From Ignavibacteriales bacterium (lineage in GTDB: Bacteria; Bacteroidota; Ignavibacteria; Ignavibacteriales; SURF-24): a stretch of 64,000 nt of DNA. The notes under the pieces were generated by a model. The model was not told the origin of the DNA and searched no databases. It saw only the letters and a program-made list of their open reading frames with translations. The stretch is taken from the NCBI GenBank assembly GCA_036261625.1, contig DATAKL010000009.1, forward strand, positions 1,990-65,989, given 5' to 3'. Of this stretch, positions 133-37,145 are shown one piece after another (the first letter of the stretch is position 1; the number at the start of each line of letters is the position of its first letter). The translations under genes and the position numbers were made by a program.

Positions 133-252
133 GCCCCTGACCGGGGCTGGGGATGCGTGGGGTGGGGATCATTAACCCGGGGTTTAGTCGTCCGCCTAAG
201 AGTCGGACTCCAGCACCCCGGGCTACAAATGTCTCGCCCGACTCAGTCGGGC
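133..252 (+). repeat. GC-rich modular hairpin repeat, single unit (copy R1)
   Basis: Hairpin GCCCC-tgacc-GGGGC and a G-rich tract GGGGATGCGTGGGGTGGGGAT. Outer stem CCCGGGG (176-182) / CCCCGGG (216-222) encloses hairpin GTCCG..CGGAC. Then CTACAAATGTCT plus hairpin GCCCGAC-tca-GTCGGGC. Same module order as 16811-16926, 25794-25897 and 52308-52425. Confidence 0.75.
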
Positions 253-318
253 TTAGTGATTGCGTAATTCTAAATTCTCAGCTTTCATTAGCTATCTAAT
301 ATCAAGAGACCTAAGTAA

Positions 319-5322: not shown

Positions 5323-5560
5323 TTATTTACCTGAATTAGTATTCCTGAAGGAAAAGCCGGCCGAAGAAGTAACCGCTTTTGATGAAGTTTAATTTAATGA
5401 ATGGGCTCTTTATATTCAAATCCCGTTAAAACTCCTTCTTTTGACTTATAATTTAAGGAGATTTTTTTATAAAAAATGTTCTGTGACTTTTTCTTTCAAA
5501 GTGCTTACCTTTGGGAAAACTGCTTTCATTTTTATTCAATATCATCGGGAAATAATTTTC

Positions 5561-7057
5561 ATGAAAAAACTTATTCTTTTTCTCTTAGCCTTTTCTTTTA
5601 CGGGGCTTTTTGCACAGGAGACCGTTCCCCCCAAAAGGGAATTCAGGGGCGCCTGGGTGGCAACGGTAGCCAATATCGACTGGCCCACAAATAAAAATGC
5701 CACCTCAGGAGAACAGATTGCAGAACTGGTTTCCATAATGGACAGGCTGAAGGCCTCGGGCGTTAATGCTGTTATATTCCAGATAAGAACCGAGTGCGAC
5801 GCCCTCTATCAGTCCAAAATTGAACCCTGGTCGTACTGGCTGACCGGAAAGCAGGGCAAAGCACCCGAGCCATTTTTTGACCCCCTGCAGTTTGCAATCA
5901 GTGAAGCCCACGCCAGAGGCATGGAGCTCCACGCCTGGTTTAACCCCTACAGGGCAGTTAAGGGGATAGGCGAATACGAAGCTGCCCCCAATCACGTCTC
6001 GGTTCTTCATCCCGACTGGCTTCTGACCTTTAAGGATTACAAGATGCTGGATCCGGGTCTTCCTGAAGTGAAAAATTATGTTCTCTCCATTGTCTCCGAC
6101 GTCCTCAGGCGCTATGACGTAGACGGAATTCACTTTGACGACTACTTCTACCCCTACGGACCCAAGGTCTCAAACGAGGACTCACTGACCTATGCAAAGT
6201 ATCACGGCAGCTTTACAAACGTCGACGACTGGAGAAGAAACAACATAAACAGCCTTATGGCAAGCATTTATGATACCATTAAGGTTATTAAGCCCAGGGT
6301 AAAGTTCGGTATAAGCCCGTTCGGAATTGTTGAAAATAAGTACGCCGGCACAGATGGTTTCCAGTCCTACAATATTCTTTACTGCGACCCGTTGACATGG
6401 ATTAAAAATAAGAGTCTGGACTACATGAACCCTCAGCTTTACTGGGAAATAGGCCACGCAAGGGCGGATTACGGAAAGCTTCTTCCCTGGTGGGCTTCTG
6501 TAACCAAGGATATGCACCTTTACATCGGACAGTTCTCCAGTCAGATGGCAGCTCCTAAATACAAGGGTAAGAAAACTGAGCTTGAAGACCAGATGAGGTT
6601 AAACCGCACAACTCCGAACGTCCAGGGAGAGGTATTCTTCAGCTCTAAGAGCCTGACAGATAACTATTCGGGTTTTGCTGACACCTTGAAGAATAATTTC
6701 TATAAGTATCCGGCACTTCCTCCCTTAATGCCATGGAAAGAGACCACGCCCCCTCTATCACCGGAAAACCTTACCGTTAAGGGGGATTCTACGGGAGCAA
6801 CCTTAGAGTGGACCGCCCCCAAAGCTGCCAGCGACGGAGAGACTGCAAGCTACTACGCCGTCTACCGCTTTACGGATAAGGATGAGATAAACACTGAAGA
6901 CCCGAGATTTCTCCTTGGTGTAATCTCTTCCAGGAAAACAAAGTATAAGGACCCCGTTAAGCTTTCTGAGGGCGCAAAGTACATATATATAGTTACAGCA
7001 CTCGACCGCCTGTTTAATGAAAGCGAAAAAAGCTCCACAACCCTGAGCCTTAAGTAA
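5561..7057 (+). CDS. glycoside-hydrolase-like GHL10 (YddW/COG1649-type) secreted protein with C-terminal Fn3-like domain
   Basis: Preferred start is ATG 5561 (MKKLILFLLAFSFTGLFAQ signal peptide), not the upstream ORF-track start. REFRGAWVATVANIDWP and GIHFDDYFYP motifs are typical of this family. Confidence 0.8.
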   Translation: MKKLILFLLAFSFTGLFAQETVPPKREFRGAWVATVANIDWPTNKNATSGEQIAELVSIMDRLKASGVNAVIFQIRTECDALYQSKIEPWSYWLTGKQGKAPEPFFDPLQFAISEAHARGMELHAWFNPYRAVKGIGEYEAAPNHVSVLHPDWLLTFKDYKMLDPGLPEVKNYVLSIVSDVLRRYDVDGIHFDDYFYPYGPKVSNEDSLTYAKYHGSFTNVDDWRRNNINSLMASIYDTIKVIKPRVKFGISPFGIVENKYAGTDGFQSYNILYCDPLTWIKNKSLDYMNPQLYWEIGHARADYGKLLPWWASVTKDMHLYIGQFSSQMAAPKYKGKKTELEDQMRLNRTTPNVQGEVFFSSKSLTDNYSGFADTLKNNFYKYPALPPLMPWKETTPPLSPENLTVKGDSTGATLEWTAPKAASDGETASYYAVYRFTDKDEINTEDPRFLLGVISSRKTKYKDPVKLSEGAKYIYIVTALDRLFNESEKSSTTLSLK

Positions 7058-7064
7058 TTCTTTT

Positions 7065-7102
7065 TTAAGAGGCGGAGCACGCAAAAAAGCTCCGCCTCTT
7101 AA
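7065..7102 (+). terminator. stem-loop just after the GHL10 gene
   Basis: TTAAGAGGCGGAGC-acgcaaaaaa-GCTCCGCCTCTTAA, a 14-bp perfect stem 8 nt after the stop. No downstream T-run. Confidence 0.5.
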
Positions 7103-7120
7103 GACTATCCGAAATTTCAT

Positions 7121-7688
7121 ACCAAACCGCTTTCAGCGGTTTCATATTTGTAGAAAAACGGACCCCAAAACAATTCAGCCCGCCAGAGGCGGTCTATATG
7201 CCTTTATTTACCTGAAAATATGAAACCACTGACGTGGTTTGGAAGAGGTTTTTGTTCCATATTGCTACAAATAGGTAGCCGCTAAAGCGGATAGAAAGGA
7301 ATGTCTCTATACTGTAGGGAATCCTCCTAACTGCGTTAGCAGTTACCTATTTGTAGGGACCGTGTAAAAAACCTCCCCGAACAGCGTAGCTGTTCCATCA
7401 GACTACAAATAGGTAGCCGCTAAAGCGGATAGAAAAGGAAAAACTTTGTTCTGAATACAAAGGGATTTTTCTAACTGCGTTAGCAGTTACCTATTTGTAG
7501 AAACAGGGACCCCAAAATCCATTCTGAACCACGTAGTGGTTCCATAGGCCAATTCATGCAAAATCTTCAACATGAAATTGTTTTTTTATTCCGTTCCTAC
7601 AAATAGGTAGCCGCTAAAGCGGTTAGGAAGGAATGTCTCTATATTGAAGGGAAATTTCCTAACTGCGTCAGCAGTTACCTATTTGTAG
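7121..7688. repeat. tandem array of nested palindromic multi-hairpin units
   Basis: Three 92-98 bp units at 7265-7356, 7403-7500 and 7597-7688. Each is CTACAAATAGGTA + hairpin CCGC-taaa-GCGG ... hairpin CTGC-gtta-GCAG + TTACCTATTTGTAG. They are separated by linker units GGACC..AAAA..-hairpin-TTCCATAGG, and a solo right arm lies at 7121-7153. Confidence 0.85.
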
Positions 7689-7808
7689 GAGTCAAACCGC
7701 CCTTAAATTTCTTTTCCGATTTACGAATTACTGACTGTTAATTTTGCCTAAAAGCTCTTATGTTTGTATCCATTACCAATCAAAAAACATATAAGAAAGC
7801 AGTCATAA

Positions 7809-9023
7809 ATGAAGAAACCTGAACTAATGGCTCCGGCAGGCGACTGGACCATGCTCACTACGGCCGTAAATAGCGGGGCAGACGCGGTTTATTTCGGCAT
7901 TGAAAAGCTGAATATGAGGGCAAAAGCCAGGAATTTTACGCTTGAGGGCCTTCCTGAAATTGTATCCTTCTGCAAAGAGCACGGGGTTAAGACCTATCTT
8001 ACACTGAACACTATAATTTTTGAAGAGGAAGTCCAGGAGCTTGACGAAATCATCCCCGCGGCAAAAAAAGCGGGCGTGGATATGATAATATGCTGGGATC
8101 TGGCCCTTGTCGAGAAGTGCCGGGAGCACGATATGCCCTTCTGCGTATCCACTCAGGCCTCAATTTCCAACTCAGCCTCGGCAAACCTCTTTAAGTCCCT
8201 GGGAGCACGCAGGATTGTCATGGCACGCGAGTGCTCCCTGGATGAAATTAAGAAAATCCGGGCAAAAACAGACCTTGAGATAGAAGCTTTCATACACGGA
8301 GCAATGTGCGTTGCCGTTAGCGGAAGATGCTTTATGAGCCACCACCTCTTCGGAAAAAGCGCAAACCGCGGCGAATGCATTCAGCCCTGCCGCAGGGAAT
8401 ACGAGGTAAAGGACAATCAAATAGATAAATCGATGCTCCTGGGGGAGGACTACGTAATGTCGCCCAAGGATCTGTGCTCCATTGAATATATAGATTTGTT
8501 AATTGAGGCGGGAATAGACTCTTTTAAGATTGAAGGGCGGAAAAGAAGTCCCGAATACGTTGCCAAGACGGTTTCAGTCTACAGAAAGGCAATTGACTTG
8601 TACTTTGAGGGGAAGTTAACCGGCGAAATTAAGAAAGATATGCTCCATGAGCTTGAAAAAGTCTATAACAGGGGCTTTTCCTCTGGATTTTATTTCGATG
8701 TCCCAAGTTCAGCCGAATATGCCACTATTTACGGGAGCATAGCTACAACTAAAAAGGAATACGTCGGGAAAGTAATAAATTATTACAAAAAGACGGCTAT
8801 TGCGCACATTAAGCTGGAAACAGGGAATATAACCGTCGGTGAAGACCTTCTTGTAATAGGTCAGACGACAGGCGTTGTGGAGTTAAAACTCCCGAATATG
8901 GTAAATAACGAACTTCCTGTAACCGAGGCCCGGAAAGGCGACGAGGTTACATTTGAGTGCAGTGAGGTTATCCGTCCTAAGGACATGGTTTACAAAGTCA
9001 TTCCGGCACGGCAGCCCATTTAA
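7809..9023 (+). CDS. peptidase U32 family protein
   Basis: 404 aa. N-terminus KPELMAPAGDWTMLTTAVNSGADAVYFG and Cys-rich core (CVAVSGRCFMSHH...GECIQPCRREY) are typical of U32. Confidence 0.85.
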   Translation: MKKPELMAPAGDWTMLTTAVNSGADAVYFGIEKLNMRAKARNFTLEGLPEIVSFCKEHGVKTYLTLNTIIFEEEVQELDEIIPAAKKAGVDMIICWDLALVEKCREHDMPFCVSTQASISNSASANLFKSLGARRIVMARECSLDEIKKIRAKTDLEIEAFIHGAMCVAVSGRCFMSHHLFGKSANRGECIQPCRREYEVKDNQIDKSMLLGEDYVMSPKDLCSIEYIDLLIEAGIDSFKIEGRKRSPEYVAKTVSVYRKAIDLYFEGKLTGEIKKDMLHELEKVYNRGFSSGFYFDVPSSAEYATIYGSIATTKKEYVGKVINYYKKTAIAHIKLETGNITVGEDLLVIGQTTGVVELKLPNMVNNELPVTEARKGDEVTFECSEVIRPKDMVYKVIPARQPI

Positions 9024-9029
9024 TTTTTC

Positions 9030-9118
9030 TGTAGGGGCGGGCGGCGCCCGCCCGGAAGGGCAAAAACAATCAAATACAAAATGCCAAGCCGTTCGGGCGA
9101 GCGCCGCCCGCCCCTACA
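9030..9118. repeat. perfect 18-bp inverted repeat (GTAG-type, BIME-like), probably also the terminator of the U32 gene
   Basis: TGTAGGGGCGGGCGGCGC (9030-9047) is the exact reverse complement of GCGCCGCCCGCCCCTACA (9101-9118). The loop is 53 nt and contains small hairpins. A T-run follows at 9119-9125. Confidence 0.8.
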
Positions 9119-9199
9119 TTTTTTTGATTTAGCCACGTCAATTCCTTATCTTTGTCTATTGTACAAAAAGTGTTTTTATCAAGTAATCAATATAATACT

Positions 9200-10885
9200 A
9201 TGAAGTTAAGCAAAGCTTTTATTCCGACCTTAAAAGAGGTCCCGACTGACGCAATAATTCCAAGCCACATTTTAATGCTCCGTACCGGCATGGTGCGCAT
9301 GCTTTCAGCTGGAATTTATTCATTTCTGCCATTGGGCTATACAGTGGTTAAGAAGGTTGTTGAAATCATCCGCGAGGAGATGGATGCCATAGGCGGACAG
9401 GAATTCCACCTTCCGGCCTTAAACCCGAGGGAAATCTGGGAAGAGACAAACCGCGTTGAGGCCTTCGGCGACACCATGTTCCACATTAAAAACAGGGAAT
9501 ACGTCCTGGCCCCGACACACGAGGAAATAATGACTTACCACGCCAAGGGTGTCGTTAAATCCTATAAGGATATGCCGCAGATCTGGTACCAGATACAGAC
9601 AAAGTTCAGAAATGAAGCGCGCCCAAAAAGCGGTGTTATAAGAGGCCGTCAGTTCTTAATGAAAGACGCTTATTCATTCGATACTTCATGGGAAAACCTG
9701 GACAAGTCCTACGCCCTGCACGACGGGGCCTACAGGAGGATATTCGACCGCTGCGGCCTCAAGTATTTTGTTGTCGGTGCTTCCTCGGGCGCCATGGGAG
9801 GCAGCCGCTCGGAAGAATTCATGGTTAAATCGGAGGCAGGTGAAGATACCGTGGCACATTGCGAAATGTGCGGATACGCTGCAAACGTAGAGGTTGCAAC
9901 CTCTGTTGTAGACGGCGCTCCAAGATCCCAGGAGTCACTTGAAATAAATGAAATCTCAACTCCCAATGTGAAGTCAATTGATGAACTTTGTGAGTTCCTA
10001 AAGATAAATGAGACTCAGTGCGCAAAGTCGAGAGTTTATATCCATAACGATCAGCCGGTATTAGTCCTTATGCTTGGAAACGACGAAGTAAATGAGACCA
10101 AGCTTGGAAGTGTCCTTCCGGGCACGTTAAGACCGGGGCATCCTGATGAACTGAAAGAAATTACGGGCGCTGAAGCAGGCTCAATTGGTCCTATCGGTTT
10201 TAAGGGAAGAATTATTGCAGACCTCCGCTTAAAAGACGCAAATAATCTCTATAGCGGCGCAAACAAAAACGACTATCATATCGGCGGAATTGACATGACC
10301 CGTGACGTCCCAAGTGCCGAATACTTCGACTTAAGAACCGTTCAGGCAGGCGAGACCTGTACAAGGTGCGGCGGAACGCTCGACGTATTTAAGGCAATTG
10401 AGCTTGGACACATTTTTAAGCTCGGAACAAAGTATTCTGAAGCCATGGGAGCCACTTTCCTGGATGAACAGGGAAAAGTTAACCCGATCATCATGGGCAG
10501 CTACGGCATTGGCGTTGAACGCGTTATTGCGTGCTACATCGAACAGCACCACGACGAAAAAGGGATCGTCTGGGATAAGACACTGGCCCCGTACCAGATC
10601 CACCTCATGGGCCTTAACATGAAAAAACAGGAAGTCATAGACGCATCAAACAGGATCTATAAGGATCTTGAGGCTATGAACTACGACGTTCTTTTTGACG
10701 ACAGGGTGGATGCACAGGCAGGCTTCAAGTTTAATGATGCCGACCTTTTGGGGCTCCCCATCCAGGTAATTGTAGGCGACAAGAACCTGAAGGAAAACAA
10801 GGTTGAAGTAAAGGTAAGGGAAACAGGGGAACGCTTTACAATTGAAATTGACAGGCTTTATGATAAATTAAGAGAGCTTATTTAA
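9200..10885 (+). CDS. proS: proline--tRNA ligase
   Basis: Class II aaRS motifs FRNEARPKSGVIRGRQFLMKDAYSF and GSYGIGVERV, plus a C-terminal anticodon-binding domain. ATG at 9200 preferred over the upstream TTG. Confidence 0.95.
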   Translation: MKLSKAFIPTLKEVPTDAIIPSHILMLRTGMVRMLSAGIYSFLPLGYTVVKKVVEIIREEMDAIGGQEFHLPALNPREIWEETNRVEAFGDTMFHIKNREYVLAPTHEEIMTYHAKGVVKSYKDMPQIWYQIQTKFRNEARPKSGVIRGRQFLMKDAYSFDTSWENLDKSYALHDGAYRRIFDRCGLKYFVVGASSGAMGGSRSEEFMVKSEAGEDTVAHCEMCGYAANVEVATSVVDGAPRSQESLEINEISTPNVKSIDELCEFLKINETQCAKSRVYIHNDQPVLVLMLGNDEVNETKLGSVLPGTLRPGHPDELKEITGAEAGSIGPIGFKGRIIADLRLKDANNLYSGANKNDYHIGGIDMTRDVPSAEYFDLRTVQAGETCTRCGGTLDVFKAIELGHIFKLGTKYSEAMGATFLDEQGKVNPIIMGSYGIGVERVIACYIEQHHDEKGIVWDKTLAPYQIHLMGLNMKKQEVIDASNRIYKDLEAMNYDVLFDDRVDAQAGFKFNDADLLGLPIQVIVGDKNLKENKVEVKVRETGERFTIEIDRLYDKLRELI

Positions 10886-10939
10886 TTTAATTCCTGGTAA
10901 TTTGAAATTAAGGCATGCAGAAGGAATAACAAACTTCTC

Positions 10940-11224
10940 ATGCCTTATTTTATAAAATATACAATGAACGATATCTATATTTATTCTGAAGAAAACCTGC
11001 TTGAGCAGATTCAGTCAGGGACATATGAACTTGGGTTTTATAAGGTGAGGTTCTATACCGAAGAGGGACGCCTCGCAGAAAGAAAAACCGATACAATTTC
11101 CGATTTCTATCTCTATCCAAGCGGCGGGGCCTTAAGAGATGAAAATATGAACATTGTGCTTTACAACTCCAGGTTCGATACCTACAGAGGGTTCGTTCCT
11201 CCTCATAAAAACAAGGAAAAATAA
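10940..11224 (+). CDS. hypothetical protein
   Basis: 94-aa ORF filling the proS-rsmI gap on the same strand. No recognisable motif. Confidence 0.35.
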   Translation: MPYFIKYTMNDIYIYSEENLLEQIQSGTYELGFYKVRFYTEEGRLAERKTDTISDFYLYPSGGALRDENMNIVLYNSRFDTYRGFVPPHKNKEK

Positions 11225-11233
11225 GTCTGACAT

Positions 11234-11923
11234 ATGGACAACGGCAAGCTTTATCTCGTCTCAACACCTATCGGCAACTACGATGACATTACACTCAGGG
11301 CGCTGAACACGCTGAAATCGGCAGATTTCATCATCTGCGAGGAATTCAAGGAAGCCCGCAGGCTTCTTTCACAGTATAAAATTGAAAAAGAACTCCTATC
11401 CCTCAATGAGCACAACGAAAATGAAGGCGCCAACGACATTCTGCTAAGAATTGTGCAGGGGGAGTCGGCAGCTTTGATCTCAGACTGCGGAACGCCATTG
11501 TTCTCAGATCCAGGGCATCTTCTGGTGGACCTGTGCATAAGCCAGAAAATTGACGTAGTACCGGTTCCGGGCGCCAATTCGCTTCTGCCCGCCCTGACAG
11601 CCTCGGGCTTCGACTTTGAAAAATTCTACTTCTACGGCTGGCTTTCACCTAAAAAAGACGAACGCCGGGCTGAACTTGTAAAGCTCAAGGCAGTTAACGA
11701 GGTGATTGTTCTTATGGATACCCCCTACCGCCTGAAAACGCTCCTTCAGGACGTTGAAAAAGTCTTCGGCGCAGGCCTAAGGGTGGCTCTCGGGTATAAT
11801 CTCACAATGAAGGATGAGAAGTTCTTCCGCGGCACGGTCTCCCAGGTGCTGGAGACAGCAGAAAAAAGGCAGCTCAAGGGGGAATTTGTGCTCGTTATCA
11901 ATAACAAAAGATTCAGACGTTAG
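11234..11923 (+). CDS. rsmI: tetrapyrrole-methylase-fold SAM methyltransferase, RsmI-like (16S rRNA C1402 2'-O-methyltransferase family)
   Basis: N-terminus KLYLVSTPIGNYDDITLRALNTLKSADFIICE and SDCGTPLFSDPG match the RsmI pattern. At 229 aa it is shorter than E. coli RsmI. Confidence 0.65.
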   Translation: MDNGKLYLVSTPIGNYDDITLRALNTLKSADFIICEEFKEARRLLSQYKIEKELLSLNEHNENEGANDILLRIVQGESAALISDCGTPLFSDPGHLLVDLCISQKIDVVPVPGANSLLPALTASGFDFEKFYFYGWLSPKKDERRAELVKLKAVNEVIVLMDTPYRLKTLLQDVEKVFGAGLRVALGYNLTMKDEKFFRGTVSQVLETAEKRQLKGEFVLVINNKRFRR

Positions 11924-12050
11924 TATTAAAGAGCTATGTTGTCTTTTCCCATTGATTTAGCGCGGGAATTTTGATAAAATTAGGGTAGCTTTTGAACTTT
12001 GAATTGTAAAACCGGGTTTTGCTGAATAATAGAATATAATTGGAGGAAAC

Positions 12051-12596
12051 ATGTTAAGAGTTCAGGATGTGGATTTAACGCCGAATCCCCAGGCTCTGAA
12101 ATTTATATTAAGCGAAAAACTGCTTAAAAGAGAGACAAGACACTTTAAGAATAGAGAAGAGGCCCAGGCAGACCCCCTGGCAAAAGGCATTTTTGAGATC
12201 GAAGGGGTTGAATCTGTCTTTTATATGGATAAATTCGTAACCGTCGAGAAAAACCCCGCAGTTGACTGGGGCAAAATACAGATGCCTTTTATTAAGTTTA
12301 TACAGGGTTTCGATAAAGCGCTCCTTCCTGAGGAAAAAGAACCGGAGCCTTTAGGAAAAGAAGAAGAAGGCGAGCTTTTAAGGCTGATTAATGCTTTTCT
12401 GGATCAGAGAGTGCGCCCTGCCCTGGCCGGCGACGGCGGAGGTCTGGAAGTAATTGGTATAGACGGCTACCTGCTGCGCATCCGCTACCAGGGTGCATGC
12501 GGAAGCTGCCCGAGCTCGATAAGCGGTACACTGAACGCCATTGAAAACCTGCTTAAACGCGAAATTAATCCGGCAATTGAAGTTATTCCGGGATGA
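12051..12596 (+). CDS. NifU/Nfu-type iron-sulfur cluster scaffold protein
   Basis: Nfu_N-like N-terminal half and a C-terminal NifU domain with CGSCPSS (CxxC). Confidence 0.8.
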   Translation: MLRVQDVDLTPNPQALKFILSEKLLKRETRHFKNREEAQADPLAKGIFEIEGVESVFYMDKFVTVEKNPAVDWGKIQMPFIKFIQGFDKALLPEEKEPEPLGKEEEGELLRLINAFLDQRVRPALAGDGGGLEVIGIDGYLLRIRYQGACGSCPSSISGTLNAIENLLKREINPAIEVIPG

Positions 12597-12643
12597 TAAT
12601 TCTCCGCACAGAGTAAATCGTTCTTAAAATAGATTAAATTATA

Positions 12644-12676
12644 AAAGCCGTCCCGAAAAACTTTCGGGACGGCTTT
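12644..12676 (+). terminator. intrinsic terminator-like hairpin after the Nfu gene
   Basis: AAAGCCGTCCCGAAA-aac-TTTCGGGACGGCTTT, a 15-bp perfect stem. Confidence 0.65.
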
Positions 12677-12701
12677 CAATTTATCTGGTACAAATAAAAA
12701 A

Positions 12702-12720
12702 AGCGGTGCTTAAAACCGCT
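12702..12720 (-). terminator. intrinsic terminator of the small minus-strand ORF
   Basis: AGCGGT-gcttaaa-ACCGCT. A run of T follows on the minus strand (A-run 12695-12701 on plus). Confidence 0.55.
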
Positions 12721-12746
12721 CTTTTCAAAGTAAGTCTATTCAATAA

Positions 12747-12911
12747 TTACTTTATATCGGTTACTTTGCTGACGTCGTCAAGACGGACAAACTTTTCCTG
12801 GAATTTTGTGCTTCCTTCATCTGACTTGAATGCCTTAATAACCTTTACATTAACTCCTGAAGACTTTGCCTTGTTTTTCGACTTGTCGCCAAAGGTTTGT
12901 TGTTTAGCCAT
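12747..12911 (-). CDS. small basic protein, DUF4295-like (below the ORF-track cutoff)
   Basis: Hand-translated 54 aa: MAKQQTFGDKSKNKAKSSGVNVKVIKAFKSDEGSTKFQEKFVRLDDVSKVTDIK. It resembles small Lys-rich DUF4295 proteins of Bacteroidota. It has its own terminator and an AT-rich upstream region. Confidence 0.55.
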   Translation of the reverse strand: MAKQQTFGDKSKNKAKSSGVNVKVIKAFKSDEGSTKFQEKFVRLDDVSKVTDIK

Positions 12912-13137
12912 CTTTTACTCCATTGAATTTATTCTCCCAAATATAAAAATATTCAGAATCAAAAAAAAGCGCTAAAGTATACAAAAATAGGGCTCTGAAA
13001 ATTGCATAATATTGGATTTGGAGTTTTTTTTGCTTAATCTTTAAATTATAAAGTCTTTGATTCTTTATTCTGTACGCCTTTGTCCGGGAGGCAGAAAGGC
13101 TTTGTAAGATCATTATCCGGAAATTAAAAGGGTTTTT

Positions 13138-14628
13138 ATGTCGACATTAGAAAAAACTTATAAATTTTCTGAAAAGTATCCAAATATCAAATATAAGCGT
13201 CTGGGAAAAACAGGTTATCAGGTTTCCATTTGCGGATTCGGAACCTACAGGGTGGACTACAGGATCCCCGAGCACGTTAAGGCGCTAAGCTATGCCATCC
13301 AGAGCGGCATTAACCTCGTTGATACTTCTTCCAATTACTCCGACGGCGGAAGTGAAACCCTTGTGGGCAACGCCGTAAACGGCCTGATTGAAACAGGCGG
13401 CCTTGACCGCGATGAGATTGTAATTGTATCCAAAGGGGGATACATACAGGGGCAAAATCAGGAACTGGCTATGGAAAAAGAAAGGCTGGGGCACGCTTAT
13501 CCCGAGATCGTCCGCTGCGCACCGGACTTGTGGCACAGCATACACCCGGAATTTCTTCACGACCAGATCACCTCCTCACTTGAAAAGTTAAAGCAGGATC
13601 ACATAGACGTCTACCTTCTGCATAATCCCGAGTACTTCCTCATGTATACGGGAACGCGTGACCTCGGGAAATTAAGGGAAGAATATTACAGAAGAATTAA
13701 AACGGCTTTTGAGTACCTGGAAGAGGAAGTCCGGAAAGGAAGAATACTCCACTACGGAATATCTTCCAACACTTTCGGAGAGGAGGAAGACAAAAGAAGC
13801 TTTACCTCGCTTGAGGAGGTCTTAAAGCTCTCAGAAAAAATCTCCCCTGAAAACCATTTCTCCGTTGTGCAGCTCCCGATGAACCTGCTTGAAAAAGGGG
13901 GAGCCGACAACTTTAACCAGCAGAAGGGAAAGAAAACTTTCCTCGAACTGGCCTCTGAAAACGATCTGGGCGTGCTCGTAAACCGCCCGCTTAACGCCAT
14001 CAGGGGAAATAAGATCGTAAGGCTGGCAGATTTTAACGTGAAAGAGGACCGCTCGGTGCCCGAGATCAATCAGCTTATTGGCGACCTGAAGAAACAGGAA
14101 GACACGATAAAGGCGTCCTATGTAAGCGACCTTTCAATTAAGGCAAAAGACAAAGAGACGATACTTGAATCGATGTCGCTTGCTTCTGTTCTGGAGAACA
14201 CTTTTAATAAATTTGAAAGCGCCAACCAGTTCATAGAGATTAAAAAACAGTTTTTTATTCCGAGGGCCAATTACGCCATAAATGAAATTTATAAACATCA
14301 CGACAACGAAGAGGATGTGATCTCAAAGCTGAACTTCTATGCCACTACAGTTAATATTGTGCTCGACTCGATGGAAAGCGTTTTTGCCAGACAGTCCAAC
14401 AGCAGGAACCAGAAGGTCCACAAGATGATTGAGCCATACCTGAACGGAAGCTCTAAAGACCTTACGCTTTCACAGAAGGCGATCCTTTTGATTAACTCCC
14501 TGCCCGGGGTTACAAGCACACTTGTAGGCATGCGCTCAATGAAGTATATTGATGACGTCATAGGATCTATTGAAACCCCTTATGCACAGAAGGCCCTTGA
14601 GTTCTGGAAAGAAGAAATGAAAGACTAA
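13138..14628 (+). CDS. aldo/keto reductase family oxidoreductase with C-terminal extension
   Basis: The N-terminal ~330 aa show the AKR pattern (GFGTYRV, LVDTSSNYSDGGSE, DVYLLHNPE). The ~160-aa C-terminal part is unassigned. Confidence 0.75.
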   Translation: MSTLEKTYKFSEKYPNIKYKRLGKTGYQVSICGFGTYRVDYRIPEHVKALSYAIQSGINLVDTSSNYSDGGSETLVGNAVNGLIETGGLDRDEIVIVSKGGYIQGQNQELAMEKERLGHAYPEIVRCAPDLWHSIHPEFLHDQITSSLEKLKQDHIDVYLLHNPEYFLMYTGTRDLGKLREEYYRRIKTAFEYLEEEVRKGRILHYGISSNTFGEEEDKRSFTSLEEVLKLSEKISPENHFSVVQLPMNLLEKGGADNFNQQKGKKTFLELASENDLGVLVNRPLNAIRGNKIVRLADFNVKEDRSVPEINQLIGDLKKQEDTIKASYVSDLSIKAKDKETILESMSLASVLENTFNKFESANQFIEIKKQFFIPRANYAINEIYKHHDNEEDVISKLNFYATTVNIVLDSMESVFARQSNSRNQKVHKMIEPYLNGSSKDLTLSQKAILLINSLPGVTSTLVGMRSMKYIDDVIGSIETPYAQKALEFWKEEMKD

Positions 14629-14658
14629 CAAAGGACTTCACAATAAAAGCGGATTATT

Positions 14659-15519
14659 ATGGATATCTCACGGTTCCTTGTAAAGCCTGACAGTTCAGTA
14701 AAACTGAAGGACTATAAGACAGACAATACTAATGGCTATAAGTCGAAGACGGATGCCGAAGGAAAACTTGCAGACAATATTACACAAATGGATGACCTGC
14801 AGGCCAGACTCTATGCGCAGGATAAGTATTCGCTTCTCCTGGTCTTCCAGGCAATGGACGGCGGCGGCAAAGACAGCGCCATTAAGCACGTTATGAGCGG
14901 ACTGAACCCGCAGGGTACGCAGGTCTTCAGCTTCAAGCAGCCTTCGAAGGAAGAGCTGGATCACGGCTATTTGTGGAGAATAAGTAAAGCCCTCCCGGAA
15001 AAAGGAAGAATCGGGATCTTTAACCGCTCGCACTATGAGGAGGTCCTGATTGTAAGAGTGCACGGCCTGCAGAATCAGGAGAGGCTGCCCGACTGGGTAC
15101 TTAACGACGATATCTGGAAGATGCGCTACAGGCAGATCAACGACTTTGAACGCTATCTTTATGAGACAGGCACCTTTATCGTTAAATTCTTTCTTAATAT
15201 TTCCAGGGATGAACAGAAAAAAAGATTCCTCAAAAGAATTGAGGATCCGGCAAAGAACTGGAAGATCACTGAAGAGGATATTGCCGAGCGTGCGTACTGG
15301 AATGACTACCAGAAGTGCTACCAGGAGGCAATTTCTAAAACCAGCACGAAGCACGCCCCGTGGTACATTATTCCTGGTGATAAAAAGTGGTTTGCCCACC
15401 TTGCAGTCTCCGAGGTCATTGTCGAGACGTTGAAATCTATGAATATAAATTTCCCCAAAGTTGAGGGTAAACAGCTGGAGGAGCTGGGCAGACTTAAGGA
15501 TAAATTAACCAAAGAATAA
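14659..15519 (+). CDS. polyphosphate kinase 2 (PPK2) family protein
   Basis: PPK2 P-loop FQAMDGGGKDS, FNRSHYEEV and the lid region. Length of 286 aa is typical. Confidence 0.9.
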   Translation: MDISRFLVKPDSSVKLKDYKTDNTNGYKSKTDAEGKLADNITQMDDLQARLYAQDKYSLLLVFQAMDGGGKDSAIKHVMSGLNPQGTQVFSFKQPSKEELDHGYLWRISKALPEKGRIGIFNRSHYEEVLIVRVHGLQNQERLPDWVLNDDIWKMRYRQINDFERYLYETGTFIVKFFLNISRDEQKKRFLKRIEDPAKNWKITEEDIAERAYWNDYQKCYQEAISKTSTKHAPWYIIPGDKKWFAHLAVSEVIVETLKSMNINFPKVEGKQLEELGRLKDKLTKE

Positions 15520-15531
15520 AGCAGAATATAT

Positions 15532-16134
15532 ATGAGAAATTTTTACAGGTTACTTCCCCTGTTTTTTTTCTTTCTTGCACTCCTCACCTCCGGATGCAAA
15601 GATAAACTGCCCGTAAAGGATGACCTTTCAAATGCGCACTACGTCTTTTTAACACAGGACAGCAGCCGCGTTGTTTTTCCTCAGAACGTGAAAGGCAAAG
15701 TCGTAGTGCTGGGGCTCATATTCACGCACTGCCCCGACATATGTCCTCTTATTACAAACAATATGGAGCGCATACAGAAGGAGGCAAAAAAAGAGGGGAT
15801 AAATGACATATCGTTTGTCTCAATCAGCTTCGATCCTTTAAGAGACAGGCCTTCGGTCCTGAAGGAATATGCCGATGTAAGAGAAATCGACACGTCAAAC
15901 TGGGTGTTTCTTACCGGCAGGCAGAGTGAAATCGATTCTCTTAAGAAACAGCTCCATTATGTATCTATTGCAGGAGATACGACTTATTCGGAATCGGGTG
16001 AGCCGTCGTACTTTTTCGTCCACACCGACCGTATAACCCTGATGGATAAAGAGGGGAGAACAAGGCAGGAATACAAAGGAAGCAGCCTAAACGTTGATGA
16101 AGTAATGAAAGACATAAAAACTCTTTCCGACTGA
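15532..16134 (+). CDS. SCO1/SenC family copper chaperone (lipoprotein)
   Basis: Lipobox LLTSGC, thioredoxin fold with the CPDICP (CxxxC) copper site and a downstream His. Confidence 0.85.
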   Translation: MRNFYRLLPLFFFFLALLTSGCKDKLPVKDDLSNAHYVFLTQDSSRVVFPQNVKGKVVVLGLIFTHCPDICPLITNNMERIQKEAKKEGINDISFVSISFDPLRDRPSVLKEYADVREIDTSNWVFLTGRQSEIDSLKKQLHYVSIAGDTTYSESGEPSYFFVHTDRITLMDKEGRTRQEYKGSSLNVDEVMKDIKTLSD

Positions 16135-16164
16135 GAGAGAGAGATCTTAAAAGGAGGTATTGAA

Positions 16165-16572
16165 GTGTTTATCTTAATCGTGCTTATGATGATAATGCCT
16201 TTTCAGCAGAAGGCTCAGATTGAAGTTAAGAACGCCTGGATGAGGCCCGGGGCAAAGGACATGAATTCAGCGCTCTATTTTGAAGTCATAAACCGCTCCA
16301 ATAAGGCCGATACATTATATGATGTAAAATCGGATCTCGCACAGAAAGTTGAGATGCATGAGACCTACAGGCAGGGCGACATGATGGGCATGCGCCCGGT
16401 TAAAATGGTTGCCGTCGGCGCAAACTCTTCTTTTAAGTTTGAGCCCGGAGGGCATCACATAATGTTCATTAATCTTAAGAAGAATTTAAAGAAAGGATCC
16501 CCGGGCGGCGAAGTGACCCTTTATTTCAGGCATGCGGGACAAATAAAGATCAAACCGGAAGTAAAGAAGTAA
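16165..16572 (+). CDS. PCu(A)C-type periplasmic copper chaperone (DUF461)
   Basis: Met/His-rich motif VEMHETYRQGDMMGMRPV ... GGHHIMF. Sits immediately after the SCO gene. Confidence 0.75.
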   Translation: MFILIVLMMIMPFQQKAQIEVKNAWMRPGAKDMNSALYFEVINRSNKADTLYDVKSDLAQKVEMHETYRQGDMMGMRPVKMVAVGANSSFKFEPGGHHIMFINLKKNLKKGSPGGEVTLYFRHAGQIKIKPEVKK

Positions 16573-16668
16573 GAAATTTAGTGCCACAAAAGAAAAACCG
16601 CTTCAGGCCTTATGTGCCAACTCAATTAAAAGGCCGATGAAAGGTAAGCATCTTAAATGGAAGTTATT

Positions 16669-16926
16669 AAGCCCCGATGAGGGGCGATTTGTCTATAGCC
16701 CGGAGTGACCAAACCCGCCTTTGGCGGGTGCGGGAACTCCCGGGTAACGAATTCCCCAAATTCCCCAGAGCCCCGAGAGGGGCGATTTGTTCGGCCCGTA
16801 TTTATACAAGTCGCCCCTCTCGGGGCTCTTTTGGGGTGGGGGGATCCGTTTCCCAGGGGTTCAGTCGCCCCCATCCGGGGGCTTCCTCACCCCGGACTAT
16901 AGACAAATCGCCCCTCATCGGGGCTT
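16669..16926. repeat. 258-bp nested palindrome made of two inverted modular hairpin units (copy R2)
   Basis: 35-bp terminal inverted repeats, 16669-16703 vs 16892-16926, 34/35 complementary. Inner inverted pair GAGCCCCGAGAGGGGCGA (16768-16785) / TCGCCCCTCTCGGGGCTC (16811-16828). The right half has the same module order as R1, R3 and R4. Confidence 0.9.
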
Positions 16927-17120
16927 GTTAAATGCGTTAATCTGCATACTCTCCTTTCATTATTATTTTTGAATTAAATTAACGCCTCAGGCCTCATGAG
17001 GATTTCTTTCTTTTGTATTTTACTTATTCCTATAATTATTTAGATTTGCCATATTAGTCTAAAGAACTTTTTTTTTGGCTCCTTTTTTGGGAGTGAACTA
17101 AAATATAAAAGGAAAACATC

Positions 17121-25460: not shown

Positions 25461-25580
25461 TTAAAAATATAGATAATTACTCCTCAAGTTGCCAGGTGCA
25501 AAAGCCGGGGTATTATTTTCTTTGCCCGGATCAAATTTTAAGTATCAGCCTAACAATTTATAAATCGGATGTCTTCAGAT

Positions 25581-25897
25581 GCCGCGGTCAGCGGCATAGT
25601 GTCGATAGCCCCGGGTGACGGAATTCGCCTTTGGCGAATGACCGAACCCGGGGTTATGGATAAAAAAATTTTCGGAGCCGCGGTCAGCCGCGACATGTTC
25701 CGATTGCACAACGGATACGTTTTAATGAAATTAAATTGTCGCTTATTTTTGTTGGGAATTTCCATAACGGGTTCCCCCCCATACGAAAAATGGCGCGGCT
25801 GACCGCTGCGCTTGGGGATTGTGGGGGGATTCCGTGATCCCGGGGTTCAGTCGCCCCTCTGGGGCTTCTTCACCCTGGGCTATCGACACCAAGCCGC
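25581..25897. repeat. 317-bp composite palindromic hairpin element (copy R3)
   Basis: Terminal inverted repeats GCCGCGGTCAGCGGCATAGTGTCGATAGCCCC (25581-) vs GGGCTATCGACACCAAGCCGCTGACCGCGGC (-25897). The right arm 25794-25897 is a full unit. The left arm is an inverted, diverged unit. Confidence 0.85.
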
Positions 25898-25951
25898 TGA
25901 CCGCGGCTTTAAGACAATATAAATATTAAATTGATACCTAAATCCTGAAAT

Positions 25952-31854: not shown

Positions 31855-32350
31855 CAATTCTGCGCTCAGCCTGGTTTTCATTGCCATAATAGCTGCTTAC
31901 ATCTTAAAGCTCTTCGGTGTTATAACACTGAGCACCGGAAAGATAGTAGCCTACGCTTTTTTACTTTACGGCATAGTTTCAGTTTATCTTACCATGGGGA
32001 CGCACAGGAGGGCAGGACTATTCTTTGGGACGGCCATTTTTCTTACGGGTATAGTTTTATTTATTGTAGAGTACTTCGATATAATTCAGCCCGGGATACT
32101 GGTTCTGCCGGCCCTGCTTTTTATTATAGGCATAGGATTTCTTATGCTCTTCTTCGACGATTTTTCAAACCGGGTATTTCTTTACACCTCAGGCACGCTT
32201 GTATTTTTCTCCATCCTCTCGGCATTTCTAACCAGGCGTTTCCCGATGTTCGGCTTTGCGAACAGGGTTAGCTCGGGACTTTTGGACTACTACCCCGTTT
32301 TCCTAATACTCCTCGGCATATACATTCTTCTTAACAGGAAGAGGCAGTGA
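31844..32350 (+). CDS. polytopic membrane protein (LiaF-like context), function unknown
   Basis: 168 aa with ~5 TM helices. TTG start overlapping the PspC gene stop. The start site is uncertain. Confidence 0.5.
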   Translation: MRNDNSALSLVFIAIIAAYILKLFGVITLSTGKIVAYAFLLYGIVSVYLTMGTHRRAGLFFGTAIFLTGIVLFIVEYFDIIQPGILVLPALLFIIGIGFLMLFFDDFSNRVFLYTSGTLVFFSILSAFLTRRFPMFGFANRVSSGLLDYYPVFLILLGIYILLNRKRQ

Positions 32351-32461
32351 TTCTTTCTAATTTTCCGGGCGGAACTTTAAGCCCGGATGCAATTTTCTTC
32401 TAAATTAAGTAACTTAAGTTAGTTCATCACAAAATACTAATAAAACTAATGAGACAGTTAT

Positions 32462-32749
32462 ATGAATCTGCATGAATTAAGACAGAAAAGGGATCGCATT
32501 TTGCAGATAGCCTCTCTTTACGGGGCAAGGGATCTGCGGATTTTTGGTTCCATTGCCCGAAACGAGCAGACTGAAAGCAGTGATGTGGACATTTTAGCAA
32601 AAATGGAAAAAGGGACGACCTTATTAAGGCATATTTCTCTGGTCCATGCACTTGAAGAAGAATTAGGGATAAAAGTAGATGTGGTTTCTGAAAATGCTAT
32701 TAAAGGCCGAATTAAAGAAAATATTATGCGTGAGGTAATTCAGCTTTGA
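32462..32749 (+). CDS. MNT-type nucleotidyltransferase antitoxin (copy 1)
   Basis: FGSIARNEQTESSDVDIL (GS..DxD minimal nucleotidyltransferase motif). 4-nt overlap with the HEPN gene. About 90 percent nt identity to 50388-50675 by eye. Confidence 0.9.
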   Translation: MNLHELRQKRDRILQIASLYGARDLRIFGSIARNEQTESSDVDILAKMEKGTTLLRHISLVHALEEELGIKVDVVSENAIKGRIKENIMREVIQL

Positions 32750-33087
32750 GAAATGATACTGAATGGCTGAAAGATATTTTAGATGAAATTGCGCTGATTG
32801 AAAAGTATTCAGTGAAAGGAGAACTAGCCTTCCAGAAGGATGAATTAATTCAGACATGGATGATTCACCACTTGCAGACAATTGGTGAAGCAGCCGGTAA
32901 ACTGTCTGAAAATCTAAAACAAAAATATCCCTCAATCCCCTGGAGAGACATCATCTCCATGCGTAACTTTATAGTGCATCAGTATTTTGGAGTTGACCTG
33001 GAGGAAATCTGGAATACTGTCACCCATGATATCCCGGTTCTGAAAAACAATCTCAATCAAGTCCTAAAGGATCCCGATAATTCTTAG
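32746..33087 (+). CDS. HEPN (DUF86/HepT-type) toxin
   Basis: Rx4-6H motif RNFIVHQY. 113 aa. TTG start overlapping the MNT stop. Confidence 0.85.
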   Translation: MRNDTEWLKDILDEIALIEKYSVKGELAFQKDELIQTWMIHHLQTIGEAAGKLSENLKQKYPSIPWRDIISMRNFIVHQYFGVDLEEIWNTVTHDIPVLKNNLNQVLKDPDNS

Positions 33088-33108
33088 TTGCGTATCCAAA
33101 CTAATCCC

Positions 33109-33159
33109 CGGAGCCGCGGTGGCCTGCCCGTCTTTGACGTGGCCGCGACATGTTCTGAT
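33109..33159. repeat. fragment of the GC-rich hairpin repeat family (copy R5)
   Basis: CGGAGCCGCGGT...CCGCGACATGTTCTGAT matches CGGAGCCGCGGTCAGCCGCGACATGTTCCGAT at 25673-25704. The loop is expanded from about 4 to about 23 nt. Confidence 0.65.
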
Positions 33160-33235
33160 GAGAAGAACCATTTCAGAATTACAATAAATTTGGCTAAATT
33201 CGCGGAAGTGTCTAATATTTAAAGTCATAAATCGT

Positions 33236-34873: not shown

Positions 34874-34959
34874 ACATCTTCTAAGCAGTTATCCGGCTTC
34901 AGTCCGGAAGACTTTCGATTGTATTTCTTCATTTATCGGGCTGAGTTGAGCCCCTTGTT

Positions 34960-35748
34960 TTATTTAGAATCCATGAATACCACTTCATCGGCATTAAAAT
35001 ATTCGGGATCGAAATCATCTCCCGCCCATTCTTTCATCTCTTCATAATCCTCAGAATCCTCATTGCTTAAAGTATCGAGAAGTTCCTCGTAGCCCCAGGA
35101 ACCGCCGCAATCCTCAGGCGGGCAAGCCCTTTCACCGGCAAGGCAAACCGGGTAGGTAAGGTTTTCATCCCTTGGCAGGGATTTCTCAAACTTTATTGTA
35201 TGCTCCCAGCAATCCCCAAAATCGTACGTATATAATGCTTTCGAATTCAGCCTGGAGAAATAATTCGCAACTTTGTGTTTTTTCCCCTCAATTACCCCGG
35301 GAGCCATTTCATCTGGTATACCGATACTTACCTCAAGGCCTGTTTTCGGGTTCATTATCTTAAACTCATGCAGATGGTAATTAAGCCATCCCATTGCATC
35401 CTGAATTGCATTATGCAGCTGTTCGAAATTATAAGTTTCAGGCACCTGTATACGCCGCCATATCCTCGGCTTTACATCGTGGAGAGTGATTTTGAACTGA
35501 TAAACATTTTCAAACTGCTTTTTACTGCCCTTTTTACCGGCACCCTCAGTGTTCGCGACCTGTCCGGTGTTAGCTTTCGCCGTCTTGAACAGCCCTCCCG
35601 ATTCCTTCATTGCTTTCAGGGGAATAAGTCCTATACTGTCCTCGAGTTGAAATATTTCGAGCTCATCTCCCGGCTCCAGTTTCAGCTTTTTCCGTATCTC
35701 TTCGGGGATAACAACCTGATATTCCGGTAAGATTTTTACAATTGTCAT
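34960..35748 (-). CDS. AbrB/SpoVT-like N-terminal domain fused to a pRiA4b ORF-3-like (PRiA4_ORF3) domain
   Basis: N-terminus VVIPEEIRKKLKLEPGDELEIF (swapped-hairpin AbrB/MazE pattern). C-terminus YQFKITLHDVKPRIWRRIQVP ... CPPEDCGGSWGYEELL, typical of PF07929. Confidence 0.75.
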   Translation of the reverse strand: MTIVKILPEYQVVIPEEIRKKLKLEPGDELEIFQLEDSIGLIPLKAMKESGGLFKTAKANTGQVANTEGAGKKGSKKQFENVYQFKITLHDVKPRIWRRIQVPETYNFEQLHNAIQDAMGWLNYHLHEFKIMNPKTGLEVSIGIPDEMAPGVIEGKKHKVANYFSRLNSKALYTYDFGDCWEHTIKFEKSLPRDENLTYPVCLAGERACPPEDCGGSWGYEELLDTLSNEDSEDYEEMKEWAGDDFDPEYFNADEVVFMDSK

Positions 35749-36086
35749 CTTTCTCTCCCAATTTTATAAATAATATATCGATACTTCGGCCATAATTCAA
35801 TAAAGCAGCCGGGTTGAACTATAATTTAATATATCTTTAATTTAGCAAGTATGTAAGGAACAGATATTAAAAGGAAACAGATTATACGATTTTCCAGCTT
35901 TTTTATGGATTTTTATTCTTTTTTTATGTGCGTTTCCTAAAAACAAACGCAACTTTTCAGAGGAAGCTGCAATGCCGGCATTTGCCGGCAGATTTAAGGC
36001 ACAAAGTGACAATATCTTTAATGTTAAGATATTCCAGATAAGGGAACTCAATTCTGCCTAATCTCCAAAAATATTTTTACTTTGCA

Positions 36087-36113: not shown

Positions 36114-36163
36114 TAATATAAACAATCGGAAAGGACTTGACCAATACTCAACCTGAAGGCAGA

Positions 36164-36652: not shown

Positions 36653-36668
36653 TAAAAGGAATGATCAT

Positions 36669-37136: not shown

Positions 37137-37145
37137 GGCAGTGAA

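Follow-up and report, generated by a model that had tools for sequence, protein, structure and literature searches.

A probable mosaic cluster of REP-type palindromic repeats recently gained between two genes of an Ignavibacteriales bacterium

Introduction

In Escherichia coli, the bacterial interspersed mosaic elements (BIMEs) known as BIME-2 associate a y or z2 repetitive extragenic palindrome (REP) with an inverted REP (iREP) through S and s/l/r linkers, and form tandem copies the number of which varies between strains (Ton-Hoang et al. 2012, PMC3333891). Here, we describe an array of palindromic units with a comparable layout in a 64,000-nt stretch of DNA from an Ignavibacteriales bacterium (GenBank assembly GCA_036261625.1, contig DATAKL010000009.1, positions 1,990 to 65,989; this whole stretch is hereafter called the window and all coordinates refer to it). 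The array spans ~590 bp, roughly 7103-7693, in a gap of 751 bp (7058-7808) between a gene encoding a GHL10-family glycosidase with an fn3 domain (5441-7057, + strand) and a U32 peptidase gene (7809-9023, + strand). It is neither a gene nor a conserved regulatory RNA. Most probably, REP-type palindromic DNA repeats, non-coding and recently gained, form here a mosaic cluster with the organisation of a BIME-2 array or of successive REP doublets, which are called REPINs.

REPINs form hairpins of ~100 nt and are mobilised by REP-associated tyrosine transposases (RAYTs) (Bertels and Rainey 2011, PMC3116915). TnpA-REP of E. coli requires the hairpin, with GTAG placed at the 5' foot, and cleaves single-stranded DNA between C and T, including within CTAC (PMC3333891). 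Under the REP rule of Quentin 2018, the basal stem has to be GC-rich, with 7-20 nt that are all paired, and the loop has to measure 2-5 nt (PMC6006769). Bacteroidetes commonly have RAYTs of subclasses 2.4 and 2.6, some of them with 'atypical' or ~120-nt nested structures, and the subclass 2.6 elements described as 'atypical' include a 122-nt nested palindrome in Belliella and GGTAG-footed hairpins in Desulfatibacillum (PMC6006769). Group 4 RAYTs are common in Chlorobia and, together with the subclasses found in Bacteroidetes, make this class of enzyme plausible for the phylum considered here. For Bacteroidetes and Chlorobi, Di Nocera et al. (2013) reported repeats that are CGTC-tagged, not GTAG-tagged (PMC3733652).

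Architecture of the array

Three palindromic units of 92-98 nt, which an earlier note on this DNA had placed at 7265-7356, 7403-7500 and 7597-7688, are indeed found there, each with inverted arms of 30-35 nt that are 83-86% complementary. The building block is the arm, in which a fixed box of 13-14 nt (CTACAAATAGGTA followed by G or A) runs directly into a hairpin of 5-7 bp. The 13-mer CTACAAATAGGTA is present in six exact copies and one copy with two mismatches, all of them within 7141-7688 and nowhere else in the 64 kb, while ~1.4 matches are expected and seven were reached in none of 100 shuffles. When the arms are compared in one orientation, with the box first, three subtypes emerge. Type A (CTACAAATAGGTA-GCCGC-taaa-GCGG(A/T)) is always on the + strand and type B (CTACAAATAGGTA-ACTGC-taac-GCAGT) always on the - strand. 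Type C (..TGA-ACC(G/A)C..G(C/T)GGT) occurs at 7122-7153 (-), in a diverged partner at 7212-7242 (+) and in the linker hairpins at 7379-7395 and 7526-7542. What distinguishes types A and B is that the small hairpin has changed on both sides in a compensatory way (CCGC/GCGG vs CTGC/GCAG), which means that each arm keeps its own hairpin despite the mismatches thereby put into the long hairpin formed by the two arms.

From left to right, the array begins with the type-C arm at 7122-7153 (-), which consists of CTACAAATATGAA plus ACCGC..GCGGT, has an 8-bp stem (AAACCGCT/AGCGGTTT) and scores 35 bits with R1, a covariance model built from the arms and run over the window. Then come a linker box, GGACCCCAAAA (7160-7170, +), the first of two exact copies, a linker hairpin, CCGCC-aga-GGCGG (7180-7192, +), and the diverged type-C arm at 7212-7242 (+), made of CTGAAAATATGAA plus ACCAC..GTGGT (21.9 bits, E = 0.004 with the same model). 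The arm at 7121-7153 had been taken for a solo one, which it is not, for it forms with this diverged partner a fourth palindrome of ~125 nt. Unit 1 (7265-7356) comprises a type-A arm (7265-7295, +), a centre and a type-B arm (7326-7356, -). It is followed by linker 1 (7357-7402, +), with a GGACC..AAAAAA box and the hairpin GAACAGC-gta-GCTGTTC (7379-7395), and by unit 2 (7403-7500), in which a type-A arm (7403-7433, +) and a type-B arm (7470-7500, -) enclose a centre with a hairpin of its own (CTTTGT..ACAAAG). Linker 2 (7501-7596, +) has the second GGACCCCAAAA box (7507-7517), the hairpin GAACCAC-gta-GTGGTTC (7526-7542) and ~50 nt of extra spacer, and leads to unit 3 (7597-7688), again with a type-A arm (7597-7627, +), a centre and a type-B arm (7658-7688, -).

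The order is thus C(-)/linker/C(+)/A(+) centre B(-)/linker with C(+)/A(+) centre B(-)/linker with C(+)/A(+) centre B(-). Three A arms on the + strand alternate strictly with three B arms on the - strand, each pair enclosing a centre to give a long hairpin of ~95 nt, and the linkers between pairs are conserved and carry the third hairpin type, C. An alignment of the three linker-plus-unit modules brings out conserved boxes (GGACCCCAAAA, ATTC[A/T]G and [T/C]ATA[T/G]GCC). As had been claimed, the linker stems vary yet stay complementary (GAACAGC/GCTGTTC, GAACCAC/GTGGTTC and CCGCC/GGCGG). At one homologous linker position, that of the hairpins at 7180-7192 and 7526-7542, alignment and folding show that the flanks are kept and the stem is wholly swapped but still complementary (CCGCC/GGCGG vs AACCAC/GTGGTT). 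The covariation proposed for the unit centres is more modest, since it amounts to a single compensatory pair, which unit 1 breaks. Nor does the description as a tandem array hold strictly: Tandem Repeats Finder reports none, and with a unit spacing of 138 and 194 nt the direct repeats are interspersed and not strictly in tandem. Finally, the GTAG said to end the arms is present but sits 3' of the arm hairpin, 7 nt off, and not at the canonical 5' foot of a REP, so that the note's link to RAYT transposases was based on a misplaced tetranucleotide; it is a second, internal GTAG (in GGTAG) that abuts the type-A hairpin on its 5' side.

This layout has much in common with E. coli BIME-2 and atypical BIMEs, as named in the Bachellier/Gilson nomenclature. 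Two hairpin subtypes are always in opposite orientation and alternate strictly, and so do two classes of spacers, a short 'centre' and a conserved 'linker'. Tandem copies are found at one intergenic site and their number or presence differs among close relatives (see below), while stems vary between copies yet stay complementary. Unlike in BIME-2, however, the array has the box CTACAAATAGGTA(G/A) and not a bare GTAG at the foot, its stems are 5-7 bp long instead of ~12-14 bp with a bulge, its linkers bear a third hairpin type, its host belongs to the Ignavibacteria and not to the Enterobacteria, and no cognate tnpA-REP was found in our scans. The likeness to REPINs is that each extragenic unit consists of two inverted REP-like arms and a short spacer, folds as one long imperfect hairpin (~95 nt) and occurs in a cluster of units. 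The difference from REPINs is that the arms are of different subtypes, and that the 64-kb window and ~60 kb of sequence from relatives contain no other doublet of these arms, hence no dispersed near-identical whole doublets.

A recent gain at this locus

By its U32 protein, the window belongs to the Ignavibacteriales. Four Ignavibacteria relatives (contigs L007, L014, L008 and L009) display the same gene order but a much shorter intergenic gap. Against 751 bp in the window, it measures 161 bp in L007 (U32 identity 94%), 181 bp in L014 (93%), 171 bp in L008 (86%) and 197 bp in L009 (82%). The array is absent from the syntenic site in all four, that is, its presence is polymorphic as in BIMEs, from which it follows that it is a lineage-specific gain of ~590 bp. 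This gain is recent, and the array is no conserved part of this locus.

Alignment with the empty sites of L007, L014 and L008 delineates what was inserted. The left boundary is the terminator hairpin of the GHL10 gene (7065-7102, +), with a perfect 14-bp stem, which is kept in these syntenic relatives; its T-run, which is present in the relatives, is replaced by the array in the window. From ~7694 onward, homology with the relatives resumes (ACCGCCC..TTTCTTTTC..ATTACTGACTGTTAATTTT..CTTATGTTTGTATCC), which places the array between the terminator stem and the conserved region upstream of the U32 gene. This region contains the box TATGTTTG (7759-7766, +), 3' of the array and 5' of the U32 gene, which is kept in L007, L008, L009 and L014. 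The Bacteroidetes -7 promoter consensus is TAnnTTTG, and TATGTTTG, which fits it, is promoter-like. Another box matching TAnnTTTG, TATCTTTG (9147-9154), stands ahead of proS and is kept in the same four relatives. The boxes before U32 and proS suggest that this lineage uses Bacteroidetes-like promoters. The gap itself (7058-7808) has no internal open reading frame (ORF) longer than 28 codons, and the short ones it does have (20-28 aa) are unrelated and none is repeated, which led to the rejection of small ORFs or repeated peptides as an explanation for the array.

The terminal inverted repeats of each 92-98 nt unit and the absence of the array from close relatives would be consistent with transposable elements of the miniature inverted-repeat type (MITEs) of an insertion sequence (IS) of the DDE type, having terminal inverted repeats of 13-35 nt, a transposase encoded elsewhere and a history of nested insertion or local duplication. 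A unit found in Mucilaginibacter dorajii inside a larger palindrome of ~240 nt with long outer inverted repeats (discussed below) could be viewed in the same light. This scenario is nonetheless unlikely, because the inverted repeats come without a target-site duplication: no direct repeat was found beside any of the seven full units in four genomes, and a CCGCC(T)CTTAA repeat at two array junctions, once considered as a candidate duplication, is ancestral sequence that is shared by L008. Such an absence fits mobility of the Y1 type rather than of the DDE type. It is also un-MITE-like that Runella has single arms and head-to-tail one-arm arrays with a 57-nt period, that the two arms of each unit are systematically of different subtypes and that the hairpin beside the box covaries while the box is fixed.

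A Logan contig (L001), which is an independent short-read assembly with an identical U32 gene, corresponds to positions 7601-16718 of the window. It starts inside unit 3 and ends, at 16718, inside a cluster of another repeat (family X, see below), from which it can be concluded that these repeats break short-read assemblies. Since assemblers struggle here, the copy number of the units could be wrong. That the array or its copy number is an artefact of repeat mis-assembly, or mere chance, is nevertheless barely credible. Unit 3 and its right flank are identical in the independent contig, which makes this unit real, the units and linkers differ from each other at many positions, unlike what a collapsed or duplicated read path would generate, and related elements are found in genomes of isolates.

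Folding and RNA-level features

The whole gap folds far better than shuffled sequences (z = -15 for the + strand and -16 for the - strand), and so do the single units when treated as single-stranded DNA (z = -5.3 to -8.7). On the + strand, the minimum-free-energy folds of the units as single-stranded DNA are single long hairpins (-20.8 to -24.5 kcal/mol, z = -5.4 to -8.7). On the - strand, units 1 and 2 fold at similar energy into a 13-bp outer stem bearing both small hairpins and a central one. When read on the + strand, the B and C arms resemble weak intrinsic terminators, with a 7-8 bp stem followed by CCTATTTGTA, and they come just after the GHL10 terminator that lost its T-run. As a likely side effect, the stack of hairpins 3' of the GHL10 gene would serve as a terminator, as an RNA-stabilising 3' structure or as an insulator between two co-directional genes.

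Structured RNA was one of the two options envisaged in the earlier note. It would make the array a functional multi-hairpin small RNA, or a regulatory element in a 3' or 5' untranslated region, whose hairpins are under selection at the RNA level. The very strong predicted folding on both strands, the covarying stems and the terminator-like B and C arms of the + strand are all in line with this, as is a slight excess, read from the sequence, of G-U over C-A mismatches in the long hairpins of that strand. We regard it as most improbable, however. The array is missing at this locus in four relatives whose neighbouring protein is 82-94% identical, which is not how a conserved cis-regulatory or small RNA behaves, and its position is past a terminator hairpin but ahead of the following gene's conserved TATGTTTG box, hence upstream of a TAnnTTTG-type box. 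Both strands fold equally well, which is what a DNA palindrome would give, and the arm box is found in both orientations relative to the neighbouring genes. Rfam searches over the whole window yielded no family at gathering score; with a relaxed threshold, only chance-level matches to microRNAs and FopS were obtained for 7058-7808 and its surroundings (6900-7900), and none of the matches for the other repeat clusters in the window was credible. A reading of the arms as promoters was rejected as well, CCTATTTG being unlike TAnnTTTG and the arms having no sigma-70-like sites.

Other REP-type repeats in the window

Model R1 also matches 25880-25911, 25577-25608, 52398-52429, 16667-16698 and 16897-16928, which are the 3' modules of family X, a dispersed intergenic repeat of ~100 nt with two hairpins. 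There are six copies in the window (150-268 (+), 16660-16766 (-), 16826-16935 (+), 25568-25672 (-), 25812-25920 (+) and 52330-52438 (+)) and one in L008 (3035-3142). The consensus is ..CCCGGGGTTCAGTC-hairpin 1-TTCCTCACCCCGGGCTAYAGACAnnTC-hairpin 2, in which the boxes CCCGGGGTTCAGTC and TTCCTCACCCCGGGCTAYAGACA are conserved and both hairpins covary. Its 3' module (CTAYAnA-N6-hairpin) has the same layout as the arms of the array, and the copy at 150-268 has CTACAAATGTCTCG in place of the CTACAAATAGGTAG of these arms, a match of 10/14. Copies often form inverted pairs. L007 and L008 lack the one at 16.7 kb, their gap being 121-130 bp vs 548 bp in the window. No Rfam match was found for family X, which could be a high-copy element of the REP/MITE type of this Ignavibacteria lineage.

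A canonical GTAG REP doublet occupies 9030-9118, between the U32 peptidase and proS genes. It consists of GTAGGGGCGGGC-ggc-GCCCGCCC, 29 nt and GGGCG..GCCCGCCCCTAC, and is very like the subclass 2.4 REP of Runella slithyformis, GTAGGGGCGGGGCTTGCCTCCGCCC (Quentin 2018 Table S1, PMC6006769). In L014, the doublet is kept in position with a covarying stem (GGGCGCAC/GTGCGCCC); L007 has at this site a single hairpin ending in CTAC, and the doublet is absent from L008 and L009. Together with the array and family X, this doublet indicates that the lineage holds more than one REP-type family, in fact several, and such repeats were gained recently at two or more loci of the window.

The same box and hairpin in other Bacteroidota

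Two large collections were scanned with gapped patterns demanding both termini of the unit, which is probably too strict. Among 185,579 species genomes, at one genome per species, five loci were retrieved, four of them credible (two in M. dorajii, one in a Runella chromosome and one in a Bacteroidetes metagenome-assembled genome), while a locus in Christensenella is a chance match. In metagenomes, a pattern of the same kind gave four loci, of which only that in contig L011 is credible; L010, L012 and L013 were dismissed as chance matches or artefacts. L012 has a perfect palindrome of ~100 nt at the very start of its contig (1-110, JACCDP010785835.1), most likely an assembly or library artefact unrelated to the family. 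No member was found in the viral contigs and plasmids that were scanned.

All credible members have an identical box, CTACAAATAGGTAG, and immediately after it a short hairpin, the stem of which differs. This is GCCGC/GCGGC or GCTCC/GGAGC in Mucilaginibacter, GTCCC/GGGAC in Runella and GCCTC/GAGGC in L011. The box is thus common to Ignavibacteria, Sphingobacteriia (Mucilaginibacter) and Cytophagia (Runella). Every credible member is intergenic, between ordinary co-directional genes, and none is adjoined by a transposase among the neighbouring genes examined. Their arrangement differs. In Runella sp. NZ_OZ257252 (L004, 905-1170), 3-4 single arms (CTACAAATAGGTAGTCCCTACGGGAC plus ~30 nt) are repeated head-to-tail with a 57-nt period, after which one inverted arm closes a palindrome. 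In M. dorajii, which has at least two copies in its genome (L005, 2440-2700, and L002, 2330-2490), the CTACAAATAGGTAG unit is nested in the ~240-nt palindrome, the outer inverted repeats of which are long (GGGAAATCGCTTTTAAAGATTTGCATA..) and which also contains another type of hairpin (GGTAGCTCCTATGGAGC). Closer to home, L008 has a decayed solo type-A arm, CTACAAATATGCTACCACTAAAGCGGTAGAAA, at an unrelated, non-homologous intergenic site.

When 20 arms were aligned, by hand and around the hairpin, which makes the resulting figures lean towards structure, the 5-bp stem was 95% paired, with compensatory changes in 5/5 pairs. The covariation score was reached in 0/500 shuffles, and slid registers pair only 32-41%. 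A hairpin that covaries next to a fixed box points to the recognition of a single-strand structure.

Conservation of the 13-14 nt box in Ignavibacteria, Mucilaginibacter and Runella, while the adjoining stems differ, is not what one usually sees in REPs, as these tend to be distinct in each species. It could instead indicate that the cluster is a protein-binding or chromosome-structuring site, in which a 14-mer with CTAC and GTAG half-sites 6 nt apart is the operator of a Bacteroidota-wide host protein and has spread by ordinary recombination. There is a precedent in the E. coli BIMEs, which bind IHF and other host proteins (PMC3333891; PMC2817692). Such a role seems improbable since the centre of the box is non-palindromic (AAATAG vs CTATTT) and duplex binding has no need of an always-adjacent, covarying hairpin. 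Furthermore, the array is not conserved at this locus, which speaks against a locus-specific regulatory role, and no candidate regulator was identified.

A broader proposition is that the box CTACAAATAGGTAG, together with a 5-bp hairpin that covaries freely, is the hallmark of a repeat superfamily not described so far, related to family X and present across the Bacteroidota (Ignavibacteria, Sphingobacteriia and Cytophagia). Each arm, with GTAG at the foot of its hairpin and CTAC 6 nt upstream, would be a self-contained substrate of an HUH/Y1 enzyme and an evolutionary intermediate between IS200/IS605 ends and canonical REPs. This is conceivable, albeit doubtful.

Class assignment and possible mobility

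The other option of the earlier note, a REP/BIME-like cluster, is the one that the evidence favours. The alternation of arm subtypes and linkers, the absence of the array from four relatives, the occurrence of the same box plus hairpin elsewhere in Bacteroidota, the other REP families in the window and the lack of target-site duplications all argue for it. The note's remark that the element is not a described one was borne out, as neither the literature searched nor the REPs tabulated by Quentin et al. 2018 include its motif. Only unrelated primer lists contain the strings CTACAAATAGG and CCTATTTGTAG, and no description of the element was found in the literature on REPs and RAYTs in Ignavibacteria or on MITEs and REPs in Bacteroidetes. 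Two well-known kinds of arrays were considered and rejected. No GTTRRRY core site is visible by eye in the arms and no integrase domain is present in the scanned ORFs, which disposes of an attC array. In a clustered regularly interspaced short palindromic repeat (CRISPR) array, one would not expect irregularly spaced units, 'spacers' of 46 and 96 nt that are homologous to each other, or scanned ORFs with no cas domain.

How close the arms come to GTAG-tagged REPs (PMC3733652; PMC6006769) depends on the subtype. In type A, the hairpin is directly preceded on its 5' side by GTAG, with the complementary CTAC a short distance away. The GT[AG]G expected 0-2 nt 5' of the stem is found in type A, as well as in the copies of Mucilaginibacter, Runella and L011, all of which have GGTAG, with its last G as the first base of the stem. 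The exact box is confined to one array in 64 kb; the looser CTAYAnA-N6-hairpin occurs six more times in the window, and there are one decayed arm in L008 and two loci in M. dorajii.

A further parallel is offered by the ends of IS200/IS605 elements and their MITE derivatives, with which the arms share a sub-terminal hairpin, a tetranucleotide at its foot with a nearby complement, the absence of target duplication and a single-strand logic. In IS608, guide and cleavage-site sequences pair, which is reminiscent of the tetranucleotides of the array. Unlike these elements, the ends of which are asymmetric with both hairpins on one strand, the units of the array are symmetrical, and there is no tnpA or tnpB gene near it.

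In the conserved 14-mer, GTAG forms the foot of the hairpin and CTAC precedes it by six bases on the same strand; these are the very sequences that E. coli TnpA-REP needs and cleaves, and each arm is therefore proposed to be a substrate for a Y1 enzyme of the RAYT type. The dependence on a RAYT transposase, the nature of the enzyme, its cleavage site and the route of amplification are all inferred. In this proposal, the gene for a RAYT-type (TnpA-REP) HUH/Y1 enzyme specific for single strands would reside at another place in the genome, and its product would recognise the extruded hairpin, GTAG being at the 5' foot, and cut between C and T in CTAC, 6 nt upstream within the same box. Excision and rejoining, rolling-circle-like copying or replication slippage between arms might then have multiplied a module of ~140 nt in place.

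Several observations weigh against a cluster of REPs moved by such an enzyme. Type B has GTAA and type C is without a GT[AG]G tag. The stems miss the formal requirement for 7-20 fully paired nt: that of type A is only 4-5 bp long, with 4 bp in CCGC/GCGG, and 7 bp are reached solely if a G-A or G-T pair is counted, while the stem of type B (TAACTGC/GCAGTTA) has 7 bp with only three G-C pairs, that of type C 7-8 bp and those of the other genomes 5 bp. The box is not among the RAYT-flanking REPs in Table S1 of Quentin 2018, Runella slithyformis included. No RAYT or HUH-Y gene was detected when 35 ORFs of the window and related loci were scanned with Pfam, or in a screen of 188 kb for the HUH..Y motif. 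Compensatory differences between local copies can come from quasi-palindrome template switching, with neither selection nor enzyme, and the alignment behind the covariation of the 20 arms, as mentioned above, was centred on the hairpin. The exact subfamily is found nowhere else in the 64-kb window, and the strict scans of two large collections gave few members (4 + 1 credible loci). The element is consequently best filed in the REP/BIME/REPIN class, and not as a demonstrated member of a GTAG-REP family.

If this assignment is correct, the REP/BIME/REPIN phenomenon, which has so far been worked out almost entirely in Proteobacteria, extends to Ignavibacteria. The 14-nt box with CTAC and GTAG beside a minimal hairpin would then represent a compact, testable substrate that could show how sites are chosen by the Y1 enzymes of the poorly understood RAYT subclasses of Bacteroidetes. 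On a practical level, such repeats interrupt assemblies made from short reads, two of them being where the Logan contig stops at either end, and enlarge intergenic regions, where they might be mistaken for regulatory RNAs. No long-standing question is opened by the array, the value of which lies in a new and tidy example and in a lead to a possibly wider family, namely the conservation of the 14-nt box across Bacteroidota and the way in which this box relates to family X, an abundant repeat.

Other features of the window

Away from the array, positions 32000-52000 form a low-GC stretch (0.34-0.41 vs ~0.45 elsewhere in the window). It encodes a HepT-like toxin (32746-33087), a protein with MazE and PRiA4_ORF3 domains (34960-35748), two pairs of an extracytoplasmic function (ECF) sigma factor and a zf-HC2 anti-sigma factor (36137-37136 and 39486-40704) and a TonB_C protein, and may be a variable or acquired region.

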